This document shows, one piece after another, positions 3,346 to 8,047 of a stretch of DNA of 8,047 nucleotides. The notes under the pieces were generated by a model. That model ran no database searches and had not been told where the DNA came from. It saw only the letters and a program-made list of their open reading frames with translations. The stretch lies in IMG/VR virus record IMGVR_UViG_2609459846_000016, one strand, 5' to 3'. The position numbers and the translations under genes were made by a program. The DNA is from a virus. Its lineage: Duplodnaviria > Heunggongvirae > Uroviricota > Caudoviricetes. Each line of letters opens with the position of its first letter. The stretch's first letter is position 1.

Positions 3346-4455
3346 ATGCACAGAATTGACACTCCGACAGCAGTTAAAGATAAATTTGGCCCGGGCAAGA
3401 ACGGATTTACTGACGGGAATATTCGTACAGGGCGTCATGCCACCTGGCTGAACAGTGCCATGTGGGATGCCCTTCAGGAGGAAATCTGTGGTGTCATTGA
3501 GAAGGCCGGGATAGAACTGAATAAAGAGGAACACGACCAGTTATATAAAGCCATATTATTACTGGTGGGCGGTGCAATTAACGAAGAGGCATTGCTGATA
3601 AAAAATAATCTTTCGGATGTCGAAGACAGTGATGAGGCTGTTGAAAACCTCGGATTAAAACCCACGGTGGATAAGGCAAAAAATGCCGTTCAGCGTGATG
3701 GAGACACCATGACCGGGGAGCTGAAAATCAGTGGTGTTAATGCACTGAGGATTTTCAACGAAGCCTTTGGTCTGATTTTTCGTCGTTCGGAAGAGTGTCT
3801 GCACCTCATTCCTACCCGGGAAAATCAGGGCGAGAGTGGTGATATTGGGCCGCTACGCCCCTTTACGCTTAATCTCAGGACCGGTCGCATAACTATGGGA
3901 CACGGTCTGGATGTTACAGAAGATGTATTTGCAGGCCGTTTAGCGATTAACAGCAGTAACGGAACGTGGATTCAGATGCGTGACAACAACGTTATTTTCG
4001 GGAAAAACAGGATAAATACTGATGCTGCTCAGGCGCTTCTGCGTCAGGATCATGCAGACAGAAAGTATTTCCTGGCTGGTCTTGGGAATAAGCAGTTTGG
4101 CATTTACATGATAAATAATAGCCGTACGGATAATGGTACGGACGGTCAGGCGTATATGGATGATGCGGGAAACTGGCGATGCGGGCGTCAGGTTATACCG
4201 TCAGACTACGGAAACTTCGATGCCCGCTACCAGACCAAAACAGGTGGCGTACAGAATTTTCAGTATACCAGTGAGGTGTTTTACAACCCGGGCGGGAACG
4301 AGCACAGCTGGACGTTTCGAGCACCTTCTGGTTGTGTTTTGTCAGGCATTAATGTTCAGGATACTGGCCGTAACTCTGCAGACAATATCGGTGGCGTGTA
4401 TTACAAACAGGCTCAGATTTATATTAATGGTGCATGGCGATCTGTATCAGGTTAA
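3346..4455 (+). CDS. Phage tail fibre protein (Mu S / P2 gpH-like)
   Basis: 369-aa ORF with GGGAGG at 3334-3339 before the ATG. Motifs shared with tail fibres as I recall them: ALLIKNNLSD, ENLGLKPTV...NAVQRDGDTMTGELKI (compare P2 H LGLQETVNRAGNAVQKNGDTLSGGL) and a C-terminal ...IYINGAWRSV. The ENLGL motif at 3641-3667 is the usual constant/variable junction. Confidence 0.85.
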   Translation: MHRIDTPTAVKDKFGPGKNGFTDGNIRTGRHATWLNSAMWDALQEEICGVIEKAGIELNKEEHDQLYKAILLLVGGAINEEALLIKNNLSDVEDSDEAVENLGLKPTVDKAKNAVQRDGDTMTGELKISGVNALRIFNEAFGLIFRRSEECLHLIPTRENQGESGDIGPLRPFTLNLRTGRITMGHGLDVTEDVFAGRLAINSSNGTWIQMRDNNVIFGKNRINTDAAQALLRQDHADRKYFLAGLGNKQFGIYMINNSRTDNGTDGQAYMDDAGNWRCGRQVIPSDYGNFDARYQTKTGGVQNFQYTSEVFYNPGGNEHSWTFRAPSGCVLSGINVQDTGRNSADNIGGVYYKQAQIYINGAWRSVSG

Positions 4456-4469
4456 TTAAGGAGAAAATA

Positions 4470-5000
4470 ATGGAACTCTCAAACATTACGCGTTACTACC
4501 CTGAAGACATGCCTTATGGTGACGGCATTCAGTATTTCCGTAGTGAAGACGGGCAGGATTTTTATGAATCACTGGATAAATTCACGAAGAAATACAAGCT
4601 GTGCACGCATCCTGAAACCGGCGTTATTTATTCCGTGGCGGAAGATGTATCCCGTCTTTATCCCGTTGGTTTTACCATTGTGGAAGTGGATGAACTACCG
4701 GATGGTTTTTGTATAGAGGCGCGCTGGTATTATAAAGACGGTGAAGTACTACCGGTCCCTGTTGATTACAGGCAGCAGGCAGAGTCGGAGCGTGCACGTC
4801 TTACTGCGATTGCTGAACGGGAAATATCCGATAAGAAGACGGATTTACTTTTGGGAATCATCGGTGATGAAGAAAAAGAAAAGCTGACAGTCTGGCGCAT
4901 TTACGCGAAATTGCTGCAGGCGATGGATTTCAGCACCATCACTGATAAAACCTCATATAACGCCATTGAATGGCCCGTCTCTCCGGAAGCCTCTTCCTGA
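4470..5000 (+). CDS. Tail fibre assembly protein (Tfa / Mu U / P2 gpG-like chaperone)
   Basis: 176 aa. ATG at 4470 is preceded by AGGAG at 4459-4463 and lies 14 nt after the fibre stop. The C-terminus (...KLTVWRIYAKLLQAMDFSTITDKTSYNAIEWPVSP) matches the conserved Tfa C-terminus, for example lambda Tfa ...APDIEWPAVP as I recall. The track start at 4434 overlaps the fibre gene and has no RBS, so 4470 is preferred. Confidence 0.85.
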   Translation: MELSNITRYYPEDMPYGDGIQYFRSEDGQDFYESLDKFTKKYKLCTHPETGVIYSVAEDVSRLYPVGFTIVEVDELPDGFCIEARWYYKDGEVLPVPVDYRQQAESERARLTAIAEREISDKKTDLLLGIIGDEEKEKLTVWRIYAKLLQAMDFSTITDKTSYNAIEWPVSPEASS

Positions 5001-5089
5001 TTTAATTTATCGCGAGAAAAATTATGTCTGTAGTGATATCAGGTGCGCTGACAGATGGCGCAGGCGCAGGTCGATCGCAATGACGAGAT

Positions 5090-5360
5090 TTATCGCCGTA
5101 GGAGGGAGATGAAGGAAGAACTGAGCAGTCTGGGGGATTTGAAGTCGATTAGGAATTTTATAGTGGAATAACAGAAGCCGCGGCACGTCGTATGCAAGAA
5201 CGCACCGCGGCAGGCACCAATATTTTTTGTGAAGGTATCTTTTCCCGGAATATCTGCGCCGTTCTGGTTTTTCTGTAATGCGCCAGAAGCCTGATTTACC
5301 GTTTCCTGTAAACCGAGGTTTTTGAGAATTGCCTCCGTGTCGTCTGAACGATATTTTTTC
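5090..5360 (-). pseudogene. Truncated remnant of an alternative tail-fibre segment (S'-like) in inverted orientation
   Basis: Minus-strand translation of about 5212-5360 gives KKYRSDDTEAILKNLGLQETVNQASGALQKNQNGADIPGKDTFTKNIGA, paralogous to the + strand fibre residues SDEAVENLGLKPTVDKAKNAVQRDGDTMTG. The frame then runs into non-fibre-like sequence and stops at 5090. There is no room for the rest of a fibre or a second assembly gene. The track ORF 5090..5467 starts inside the IS terminal repeats, so its first ~40 codons are not fibre-derived. Confidence 0.4.
5303..5328. other. Gin/Hin/Pin/Cin-family DNA-invertase crossover site (gix/hix-like)
   Basis: TTCCTGTAAACCGAGGTTTTTGAGAA is an imperfect palindrome about a central GA. 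It differs at 2 of 26 positions from the Mu gix sequence as I remember it (TTCCTGTAAACCGAGGTTTTGGATAA). On the minus strand it encodes N-L-G-L-Q-E, the fibre junction motif. Confidence 0.6.
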
Positions 5361-5409
5361 CCGCTTTCAGCAACAATCGCGGGCCAGAAAGTATGCAATA
5401 TAGTTATGT

Positions 5410-5542
5410 GCAAAATGGCATCTGAATCGATCGCAGTTTGGCATTCGAATCGATCATGATTTGGCATTCATCTCCGATCACAGTTTGGCATCACAATCGA
5501 TCACGATTTGGCATGCTTCCGATCATTGATTGGCATCCTGCC
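5410..5542. repeat. Left terminal multi-repeat array of the IS (5 tandem ~23-bp units plus a partial sixth)
   Basis: CGATC anchors at 5428, 5451, 5476, 5498 and 5520 (spacing 22-25 bp), each followed by (A/G)TTTGGCAT; a partial unit AAAATGGCATC lies at 5412-5422. Confidence 0.7.
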
Positions 5543-5610
5543 AGTCACTCCGGGAATTAACTCTTTTCACCACAGTCTCCATTGCCGTGTTTAAACCAGT
5601 GGAGACGTCA

Positions 5611-7176
5611 ATGTCCAGAAAGAGAAAATCCAGGAGCACTATGGAAACCTGTTTTAAGATCCTTCAGCTCAAGTTCGACAAGAAGCTGACTAACCGTTGT
5701 ATCGGACTGACGTTACACATCAGCGCCTCAACCGTTTTTGAGGTTCTTGCCCGCTTCAAAGCCTCTTCTCTGTCATGGCCATTACCTGCTGATATATCCC
5801 ATGACACGCTGGAGAAACTCATTTTTCCGCCCAAAGACACCTTTGCATCAGAGCTTGTAATGCCTGACATGTTGTACTTCGATACGGAAATGAGAAAACC
5901 AGGTGTGACGCGGCAACTGTTGTGGATGGAATACAAGGCACAGGCGGGTGACAAAGCGATGGGATACTCGCACTTCTGCCGTTGCTACCGGGAGTGGAAA
6001 AAAACGCGACGTCTCTCCATGCGCCAGGAGCATCGTGCCGGCGAAAAGCTTTTTATCGACTTCTGTGGTCCTACGGTTCCTGTTATTAATCCGGACACCG
6101 GTGAGATACGCCGCGTGGCAATCTTCGTGGCCGTAATGGGGGCGTCCAACTATACCTACGTTGAAGCGTGCGAAGGTCAGGACATGATGTCATGGTTAAA
6201 TGCCCACAGCCGTTGCCTGACCTTCCTGGGCGGCGTACCGAAGCTGCTCATCCCCGATAACCTCAGAAGCGCAGTGAAAAAGGCCGATCGCTATGAGCCT
6301 GTCATCAACGACAGTTATCAGGCACTGGCTGAGCACTATGGCACGGTTATCATCCCGGCCCGACCACGCAAACCTAAAGATAAACCAAAAGCAGAAAACG
6401 GCGTCCTCATCGTCGAACGATGGCTTCTTGCCCGCATCCGTAATGAAACCTTCCACACGCTCAGGGCGCTGAATGCGCGCCTTAGGGAGTTACTGACAGA
6501 CATGAATAACCGGCCAATGAAGGGGTACGGCAATCAAACCCGTGCAGAACGCTTCCGCATACTGGATGCGCCAGCACTCTCTCCGCTGCCTCTGGCACCT
6601 TATGAATACACGGAATACAAAGCTGTGAAGGTTGGCCCTGACTACCACGTTGAATATGCCCGTCACTGGTACTCCGTTCCACACGAACTGGTCGGTCAGC
6701 GTCTGTCACTGAAGGCGGGGCAGTCGGTGGTACAGCTCTGGCACAAGGGGCAGTGTGTGGCGCAACATCCGCGCAGCACACATGAATATAAACACACAAC
6801 CAATCCGCTTCACATGCCAGAGCGCCACCGGCAGCACGGGACATGGACACCGGAACGCCTGATCGAGCAGGGAAAACGTACGGGCCCGTCCACAGGCCGG
6901 GTGGTTGAATCCATGCTGAAGGCAAAACCCCATCCGGAACTGGCTTATCGTGCAGTTCTGGGGCTGCTGGCACTTCAGAAAAAATACGGCCCGGAACGGC
7001 TGGAAAAGGCCTGTTACGTTGCCCTGCACTATAACGCCCCTGACAGACGCTTTATCGACAATCTGCTGCGTCACCATCGGGAGAACCTGGAGCTTCCATT
7101 ATCCCGCCAGGGCGAACAACATCCGGCATATGCTTCAGAGCATGAAAACCTGCGTGGTCCGGGCTACTACCACTGA
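5611..7176 (+). CDS. istA: IS21-family transposase IstA (N-terminal HTH plus DDE integrase core)
   Basis: 521 aa from ATG 5611 (GGAGA at 5601-5605). Motifs typical of IstA: FIDFCGP, FVAVMGASNYTYVE, FLGGVPKLLIPDN, KPKAENGV. The track start at 5530 is a TTG inside the terminal repeats and is rejected. An alternative ATG at 5641 also has an AGGAG 4 nt upstream. Confidence 0.9.
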   Translation: MSRKRKSRSTMETCFKILQLKFDKKLTNRCIGLTLHISASTVFEVLARFKASSLSWPLPADISHDTLEKLIFPPKDTFASELVMPDMLYFDTEMRKPGVTRQLLWMEYKAQAGDKAMGYSHFCRCYREWKKTRRLSMRQEHRAGEKLFIDFCGPTVPVINPDTGEIRRVAIFVAVMGASNYTYVEACEGQDMMSWLNAHSRCLTFLGGVPKLLIPDNLRSAVKKADRYEPVINDSYQALAEHYGTVIIPARPRKPKDKPKAENGVLIVERWLLARIRNETFHTLRALNARLRELLTDMNNRPMKGYGNQTRAERFRILDAPALSPLPLAPYEYTEYKAVKVGPDYHVEYARHWYSVPHELVGQRLSLKAGQSVVQLWHKGQCVAQHPRSTHEYKHTTNPLHMPERHRQHGTWTPERLIEQGKRTGPSTGRVVESMLKAKPHPELAYRAVLGLLALQKKYGPERLEKACYVALHYNAPDRRFIDNLLRHHRENLELPLSRQGEQHPAYASEHENLRGPGYYH

Positions 7177-7192
7177 CAGAAGGAACAACAGT

Positions 7193-7948
7193 ATGAGTGA
7201 TAACCTGTTAAACAAACTGACCCAACTGAAACTCCCGGCGATGGCCGGGAGCCTGATACGGCAGCGGGAAACGCCTCAGACCTACGACGAACTGTCGTTC
7301 GAGGAAAGGCTGACGCTGCTGGTTGATGACGAGCTTCTGAGCAGGGAAAACAGCCGTGTGGCACGGTTGAGAAAAAATGCCGGCCTGAAATACCAGGCAA
7401 CACCGGAAGGGCTGCGCTATCCGGCCTCAAGAGGTCTGCGGGCTGAACAGATGAGAGAACTGCTGAACGGCCACTACATAACCCACAGGAAAAACCTGCT
7501 GATAACCGGTCCGACAGGATGTGGCAAGAGCTGGATAGCCAATGCACTGGGCGAACAGGCATGTCGACAGAAACACAGCGTCCGGTACTGTAGAACCGGG
7601 CGATTACTGGAACAACTGGCTCAGGGACGTGTTGATGGCAGCTGGCTGAAATATCTGAAACAGTTGCAAAAAATACAGGTTCTAATCCTGGACGATCTGG
7701 GGCTGGAACAGTTAAGTAACGCCCAGTGTAATGACCTTCTGGAGCTCATAGAGGATCGTTACGGACAAAGCAGCACGATAGTGGTAAGTCAGTTCCCGGT
7801 AGATAAATGGCATGGTCTGATGGAGAACCCAACAACAGCAGATGCCATCCTGGACAGACTGGTACATAACTCACACCGGGTGGTCCTTCAGGGAGAGTCA
7901 CTGAGGAAAAATCCCCCGGTAGTGGAAAGCAGCGAAAAAACGCGTTAA
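7193..7948 (+). CDS. istB: IS21-family helper ATPase IstB (DnaC-like AAA+)
   Basis: 251 aa from ATG 7193, 16 nt after the istA stop. Walker A GPTGCGKS and Walker B VLILDDLG are present. The track ORF begins at 6950, overlapping istA; 7193 is preferred. Confidence 0.9.
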   Translation: MSDNLLNKLTQLKLPAMAGSLIRQRETPQTYDELSFEERLTLLVDDELLSRENSRVARLRKNAGLKYQATPEGLRYPASRGLRAEQMRELLNGHYITHRKNLLITGPTGCGKSWIANALGEQACRQKHSVRYCRTGRLLEQLAQGRVDGSWLKYLKQLQKIQVLILDDLGLEQLSNAQCNDLLELIEDRYGQSSTIVVSQFPVDKWHGLMENPTTADAILDRLVHNSHRVVLQGESLRKNPPVVESSEKTR

Positions 7949-7974
7949 AAAGCGGTAGAAAAAGTTAAGTTCCC

Positions 7975-8047
7975 GGTTGATCGAATGGATGCGAATCGCT
8001 GATCGGACTTCGATGCCAATCCGTGATCGAATAGAGCGGAATACGCA
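7975..8047. repeat. Right-end terminal repeats of the IS (inverted copies of the left-end unit), truncated by the window edge
   Basis: The reverse complement of 8004-8027 is CGATCACGGATTGGCATCGAAGTC, and of about 7983-8003 is CGATCAGCGATTCGCATCCAT. Both match the left-end unit in inverted orientation. Only two units are visible before the window ends. Confidence 0.6.

Follow-up and report, generated by a model that had tools for sequence, protein, structure and literature searches.

Tandem repeats at the left end of an ISSso4 insertion sequence in a defective prophage are ordinary for their IS21 subgroup and very probably bind the IstA transposase

A series of direct repeats of ~23 bp stands directly ahead of a transposase gene in the window (the whole 8,047-nucleotide stretch of DNA analysed here). 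This locus raises the question of what element the repeats belong to, what they do, and whether there are unusually many of them, as a preliminary description had claimed. The sequence of positions 5405–5548 reads, in consecutive segments, TGCAAAATGGCATCTGAAT, CGATCGCAGTTTGGCATTCGAAT, CGATCATGATTTGGCATTCATCTC, CGATCACAGTTTGGCATCACAAT, CGATCACGATTTGGCATGCTTC and CGATCATTGATTGGCATCCTGCCAGTCACT. The array is real and regularly spaced: a search of the whole window with the motif CGATCAnnRTTTGGCAT (CGATCANNRTTTGGCAT) returned 8 matches against 0.48 expected, a number reached in none of 200 shuffles, and the matches were placed as had been described. Those on the + strand (0–1 mismatch) started at 5428, 5451, 5475, 5498 and 5520, with start-to-start spacings of 23, 24, 23 and 22 bp, and those on the − strand lay at 8013–8029 (1 mismatch) and 7989–8005 (2 mismatches). 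TRF assigned the array a period of 23 bp plus a 47-bp super-period, with a score of 139. When the phase was read from the tip as TGGCAT-N5-7-CGATCA, positions 5409–5547 resolved into six phased units of ~23 bp, each with a TGGCAT half-site followed by a CGATCA half-site:

5409..5433, + strand: L1, the tip unit, TGCAAAA + TGGCAT (5416–5421) + CTGAAT + CGATCG (5428–5433)
5434..5456, + strand: L2, TGGCAT at 5439–5444, CGATCA at 5451–5456
5457..5480, + strand: L3, TGGCAT at 5462–5467, CGATCA at 5475–5480
5481..5503, + strand: L4, TGGCAT at 5486–5491, CGATCA at 5498–5503
5504..5525, + strand: L5, TGGCAT at 5509–5514, CGATCA at 5520–5525
5526..5547, + strand: L6, TGGCAT at 5531–5536, second half-site decayed to CAGTCA (5542–5547)
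5550..5568, + strand: inner block CCGGGAATTAACTCTTTTC, conserved in relatives, with an inverted counterpart at 7958–7976

Six TGGCAT half-sites and five CGATC(A/G) half-sites are present, and neighbouring half-sites are 11–12 bp apart from centre to centre, which is about one helical turn. Read this way, the innermost unit and not the outermost is the partial one; in a CGATCA-first reading, the partial unit is the tip of the insertion sequence (IS), TGCAAAATGGCAT, at 5409–5421. The inner block, CCGGGAAyTTAAC at both ends of the element, is where the imperfect terminal inverted repeat stops on its inner side. From the end of the array to the first ATG of istA (5611) there are 63 nt. Compared as blocks of 45–47 bp, L4+L5 and L2+L3 are 84% identical. 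The two-unit super-period found by TRF (46–47 bp; 5428–5537 in the window) also occurs in arrays of the ISSso4 clade and, independently, in ISPsy14 and a Shinella element. Units may have been duplicated recently as blocks, or they may work in pairs.

The array begins at the tip of a complete IS21-family insertion sequence of 2639 bp, which occupies 5409–8047 on the + strand, has the ends 5′-TG...CA-3′, and carries istA and istB. The assignment to IS21 made in the preliminary description is borne out, as both IstA and IstB pass the cut-offs of curated IS21 models. In addition, istB lies directly 3′ of istA (17 nt from the istA stop to the istB start), the TG...CA ends belong to imperfect terminal inverted repeats whose arms were detected (left TGCAAAAT..., right ...AATACGCA), and multiple direct repeats are present within each end, six units at the left and three at the right. 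The genes and the right-end units are as follows:

5611..7176, + strand: istA, DDE transposase, 521 aa (NF033546, 283.5 bits, cut-off 160)
7193..7948, + strand: istB, AAA+ helper ATPase, 251 aa (PF01695, 205.7 bits; NF038214, 257.8 bits, cut-off 200)
7978..7999, − strand: R3, TCGCAT at 7994–7989, CGATCA at 7983–7978, reading GCGAT-TCGCAT-CCATT-CGATCA
8000..8023, − strand: R2, TGGCAT at 8018–8013, CGATCA at 8005–8000, reading CGGAT-TGGCAT-CGAAGTC-CGATCA
8024..8047, − strand: R1, the tip unit, reverse complement TGCGTAT TCCGCT CTATT CGATCA, first half-site divergent

The three inverted units fill 7978–8047 and mirror those at the left, so the repeats are multiple terminal repeats with inverted far-end copies, as had been proposed. 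Compared with the right end, the left end looks as though three additional units had been inserted after the tip unit, ahead of the inner block.

IstA matched the Pfam family Mu-transpos_C_2, with rve just under its cut-off (32.1 versus 32.6 bits). The protein is homologous to IS5376 IstA (8B4H/8Q4D; E about 1e-13), with a phmmer alignment that covers residues 85–383 only. Its tandem helix-turn-helix (HTH) region is predicted from the NCBIfam IS21 model (residues 19–327) and not from structure. Residues 16–80 (5656–5850), in the N-terminal HTH region, gave a weak match to the IS66 accessory TnpA model (54.7 bits, cut-off 150). The C-terminal ~120 residues (398–521; 6802–7173) matched no Pfam family and lie beyond the region aligned to IS5376 IstA.

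Sequence comparison identifies the element as ISSso4, a common catalogued insertion sequence of the IS21 family; we take ISSso4 to be the element name in both ISfinder and PGAP. The segment 5405–8047 is 100% identical to Escherichia coli plasmid pCT (NC_014477), all repeats included. Among plasmid records, 506 contain matches to it, and in 325 the identity is at least 99%. PGAP labels IstB as 'IS21-like element ISSso4 family', and an IstA 97.9% identical to that of the window is also labelled 'ISSso4 family'. In a comparative study, ISSso4 is named as one of the accessory modules that pCT carries (PMC6361801). Among 5426 complete E. coli genomes, 246 contain a complete ISSso4 left end and 1701 contain fragments.

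The limits of the element were determined by comparing the flanks in pCT and eight relatives. By this comparison the element starts at 5409 (TGCAAAATGG...) and stops at 8047 (...GGAATACGCA), and the left tip TGCAAAATGG is common to all close relatives, whatever the flank. The IS21 family is characterized by short target duplications of 4–8 bp, and duplications of 5–6 bp accompany three independent copies: AAGTAT in pCT, GGCAT in the K. indica element and CTGTA in the E. hormaechei element. The last base of the window, 8047, coincides with the right tip, and the target duplication of the window copy thus falls outside the view. This coincidence suggests that the contig was broken at a repeated element.

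The element sits in the tail-fibre region of a Mu-like defective prophage. Upstream of it are Mu-like tail genes, encoding baseplate J, a gp48-like protein, two proteins without assignment and a tail-fibre assembly protein. An IS-free version of the locus is present in E. coli B7A (NZ_CP035812), where ...ATAGTTATG is directly followed by TGATGATG..., and in other strains. The B7A region matching 4400–5408 is annotated as tail-fibre and tail-fibre-assembly pseudogene fragments. The minus-strand open reading frame (ORF) at 5090–5467, noted earlier as spurious and as overlapping the repeats, does start inside the IS, with an ATG that is the reverse complement of a TGGCAT half-site. It joins remnant prophage sequence to 59 nt from the left end of the IS, and within the corresponding region of B7A the annotation shows a partial 'phage tail protein' pseudogene. 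This ORF is an artefact of the IS insertion.

These limits bear on the idea that the repeats are plasmid-type iterons, i.e., part of a replication origin or an incompatibility determinant. The sole support for it is the classic iteron look of five or six direct repeats of 22–23 bp in tandem. Against it, the array begins at the exact tip of the IS and is mirrored at the opposite tip, and together with istAB it has moved into chromosomes, prophages and a wide range of unrelated plasmids. An iteron array would be expected beside a rep initiator gene in an origin context; no rep gene is adjacent, and the neighbours are istA and the prophage tail genes. An iteron function therefore has a negligible probability.

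Next, the number of units was compared among close relatives, whose IstA is 79–92% identical to that of the window. Units were counted from single half-sites, by TRF and by direct reading, as composite motifs with a fixed gap undercount when spacers vary by 1–2 bp. Close relatives carry 4–7 left units:

Serratia marcescens, K. indica and S. fonticola elements: 6 left units each
Rahnella and E. asburiae elements: 5 left units each
Buttiauxella element: 4 left units
E. hormaechei element: 4 + 2 left units

At the right end they carry three units, except for the S. fonticola element with four. The sixth CGATCA half-site, decayed in the window copy, remains undamaged in the elements of K. indica, S. 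fonticola, Rahnella and E. asburiae. The ISSso4 copy of E. coli plasmid NZ_OZ547039 (301–485 of the extracted locus) has a precise 47-bp deletion that fuses the first part of L2 with the last part of L4 and leaves four units; its istA is truncated by ISEc38.

A relic ISSso4-like left end, with the tip and four units (5 TGGCAT half-sites), was found beside terW in E. coli O145:H28 (NZ_AP024924; 1486–1601 of the extracted locus). The same relic, which an IS66-family element (tnpA/tnpB/tnpC) truncates behind the last TTGGCATCCTG, occurs in O157:H7 and O111:H8 genomes. A chimera with IS66 had been suggested by the 102-bp array match upstream of the IS66-family tnpA in O145/O157 and by the weak match between IstA and TnpA. 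It was rejected, since the locus is an ISSso4-like left end truncated by an IS66 insertion and its TnpA has no similarity to IstA.

More distant relatives were read directly and then scored by TRF and motif scans. Nine distant long-IstA elements, with IstA 38–47% identical to that of the window, share the 23-bp period and carry about 4–5 direct left units, although their half-site sequences are unrelated. Where right units were counted, there were 2–4:

ISPsy14: left 5, right 3
Pseudosulfitobacter element: left 5, right 4
Acaryochloris element: left 5, right 2–3
ISFK1: left 4, right 3
Shinella element: left 4, right 4
ISAs27: left 4 direct + 1 inverted
ISEc12: left 3–4 direct + 1 inverted
ISAs29: left 4 direct + 2–3 inverted
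ISBmu3: left 4 direct + about 5 inverted

These counts contradict the view of an unusually long array. Identical arrays are present in hundreds of ISSso4 copies, and close relatives normally have a similar number of units. The array of ISSso4 tops the range of its subgroup by about one unit and is no outlier; its count is high only in comparison with the short-IstA members IS100 and IS5376, which have two units per end. IS21 itself probably has about three left repeats. The array is real, ordinary for ISSso4 and its subgroup, and already known.

To assess the conservation of the units, four colinear six-unit arrays (window, S. marcescens, K. indica and S. fonticola; IstA 85–89% identical to that of the window) were compared. 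Only 7 of 78 half-site columns were variable, versus 20 of 61 spacer columns (Fisher p = 5e-4), and this applied to all six units and not to the outer two alone. The conservation of the half-sites fits binding by two predicted HTH domains of IstA.

The same comparison bears on whether the inner units do anything. In one reading, L3–L6 and R3 are neutral products of slippage or unequal recombination, and only the outer two units matter. The range of 4 to 7 units among close relatives, the existence of the 47-bp deletion variant, the lack of a CGATCA half-site in L6 of the E. coli copy, and the need of IS5376 for just two repeats per end in vitro (PMC10122671) all agree with it. However, in all six units the half-sites vary less than the spacers, and all sampled long-IstA elements keep about four or more left units despite fully diverged half-sites, which is hard to explain without selection. 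Neutrality of all inner units is therefore improbable. That four or more units persist throughout a deep clade argues for selection on multiplicity as such. Some inner units may be neutral, given the half-decayed L6 of the E. coli copy. Single inner units are dispensable, as shown by changes in copy number of one unit or of 47-bp blocks with two units. Recombination between repeats would add or remove units, often as 47-bp two-unit blocks, so that their number would drift from 4 to 7.

The array is thus very probably the set of left-end binding sites for the IstA transposase of ISSso4, with a tetramer core of two units per end and accessory inner units. The terminal inverted repeats of IS21 elements contain at least two direct repeats, each with two conserved blocks ~10 bp apart that are read by HTH-2 and HTH-1 (PMC10122671; PMC11208146). 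For IS5376, it was demonstrated that IstA binds the repeats, with HTH-2 and HTH-1 contacting the conserved blocks CS1 and CS2, and that strand transfer depends on IstB; integration needs two complete direct repeats at each end, and this number suffices in vitro (PMC10122671). In its transpososome, an IstA tetramer holds two ends, with the catalytic subunits on R1 and the structural subunits on R2 (PMC10122671). By analogy, each TGGCAT/CGATCA unit of ISSso4 would bind one IstA monomer through its two N-terminal helix-turn-helix domains, which we infer from the homology to IS5376 and the matching geometry of the half-sites. An IstA tetramer would hold L1/L2 and R1/R2, with catalytic subunits on L1 and R1 and structural subunits on L2 and R2.

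On this model, L3–L6 and R3 would be accessory sites. They could recruit IstA cooperatively and concentrate it, they could create an asymmetry between the left and right ends, and, placed as they are between tip and istA, they could limit transcription into istA when occupied, as a roadblock or an operator. It has been suggested that multiple repeats help to hold the transposase in an autoinhibited state until IstB binds (PMC11208146). A further step would be that the extra left sites of the long-IstA branch (4–6 phased sites at 23 bp, in many cases with a super-period of two units) build a higher-order IstA array that is mechanistically required. We regard this as doubtful. If true, IstA could coat the istA leader as a filament with an autoinhibitory or autoregulatory role, or the array could tell the left end from the right, and the transpososome would have an architecture so far undescribed for IS21.

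A promoter scan of the + strand from 5300 to 5700 found no sigma-70-like promoter, and a promoter within the array was rejected accordingly. By eye, the TTGGCA half-sites resemble a −35 element, but without a usable −10 at 16–18 bp. The idea of autoregulation is thus without sequence support, because no sigma-70-like promoter of the + strand lies in or after the array. Tandem copies of IS21 are reported to form junction promoters across their abutted ends. When the abutted tips of ISSso4 were inspected by eye for a junction promoter of this kind, CAAAAT in the left tip was a possible −10, but the right end had no −35 at a suitable distance, and this candidate was also rejected. An outward promoter-like site was observed at 5397–5426 on the − strand, with −35 TTCAGA in the IS tip, −10 TATATT in the prophage flank and a spacer of 18; one such site against 0.6 expected is at chance level. 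A search of 5000–8047 against Rfam returned nothing relevant.

The istA leader contains one further feature:

5575..5606, + strand: hairpin in the istA 5′ leader, GTCTCCATTG ... CAGTGGAGAC, pairing the Shine-Dalgarno GGAG (5601–5604); z = −3.58

In 7 relatives ten pairs of this hairpin persist, for the most part because the sequence itself is conserved; one change affects both sides of the stem, and several pairs are G-U. The hairpin may damp the translation of read-through transcripts. Two in-frame ATGs of istA, at 5611 and 5641 (10 codons apart), are preceded by the Shine-Dalgarno sequences GGAG (5601) and AGGAG (5630), and PGAP annotates the second start (5641). The pair is conserved in the ISSso4 clade (MS[RK]K...S.M[ED][TI]CF). 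A dual istA start, 7–8 codons apart, is also found in 6 of the 9 distant relatives, namely ISEc12, ISAs29, ISBmu3, ISFK1 and the Pseudosulfitobacter and Shinella elements. IS21 has similar dual starts, which yield the transposase and the cointegrase.

Each CGATC(A/G) half-site contains a GATC, at 5429, 5452, 5476, 5499 and 5521 in the left end and at 7979, 8001 and 8025 in the right end. Control by Dam/SeqA coupled to passage of the replication fork operates at the ends of IS10 and IS50, and the GATC in each unit could likewise form a Dam/SeqA-sensitive switch that couples IstA binding to the fork. Five GATC sites within 100 bp at the left end, three at the right, and the enterobacterial host range agree with such a switch. 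Yet the Burkholderia, Bradyrhizobium and Pseudosulfitobacter relatives also have GATC in their half-sites, and these hosts are expected to lack Dam. Furthermore, the units of ISPsy14 and ISAs29 have the same architecture without GATC. We consider a Dam switch very unlikely. GATC also lies within the half-sites of ISEc12, ISBmu3, ISAs27, ISFK1 and IS100, and more simply it is probably part of the sequence recognized by the HTH domains.

The discovery value of the locus is small, as the IS is catalogued and common on both the plasmids and the chromosomes of E. coli, and its family is classically known for multiple terminal repeats. The gain lies in annotation: the exact limits of the IS, the phase of the units, and the minus-strand ORF as an insertion artefact. 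In addition, the number of left-end sites in the long-IstA subgroup consistently exceeds the two that the solved IS5376 transpososome uses at each end.

The closest known system is ISSso4 in pCT, which has the same istA-istB gene order, the same TG...CA tips and a target duplication of 5–6 bp; the insertion site is the sole difference from the window copy. The elements ISPsy14, ISFK1, ISAs27, ISEc12, ISAs29 and ISBmu3 resemble ISSso4 in their IstA of about 505–521 aa (42–47% identical) and in the 23-bp period. Their tips begin with TGC as in ISSso4, except for ISPsy14, where the tip begins with TGG. In ISBmu3, ISAs29, ISEc12 and ISAs27, inverted copies of the unit lie between the direct array and istA, whereas ISSso4 has direct copies only, and one more of them. 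The direct array followed by one to ~5 inverted copies upstream of istA gives these four elements a palindromic, operator-like layout, which is absent from ISSso4, ISPsy14 and ISFK1.

IS100 of Yersinia pestis pPCP1 also carries istA and istB and has a repeated GATC-containing motif, GTGATCCAC, at both ends. Unlike ISSso4, it has two sites per end (by eye), a leader of 86 nt from tip to istA and a short IstA of 340 aa, and TRF detected no 23-bp array in it. IS5376 of Geobacillus stearothermophilus (PDB 8B4H, 8Q4D) shares with ISSso4 the DDE transposase IstA, the AAA+ ATPase IstB and bipartite direct repeats at each end. It has two repeats of ~27 bp per end within a 55-bp terminal inverted repeat (PMC10122671), compared to six left and three right units of ~23 bp in ISSso4. 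The half-site sequences of the two elements are unrelated, and the IstA of ISSso4, with 521 aa, has extra residues at both termini compared to the longer solved chain of IS5376 IstA (8B4H), which has 406 aa.
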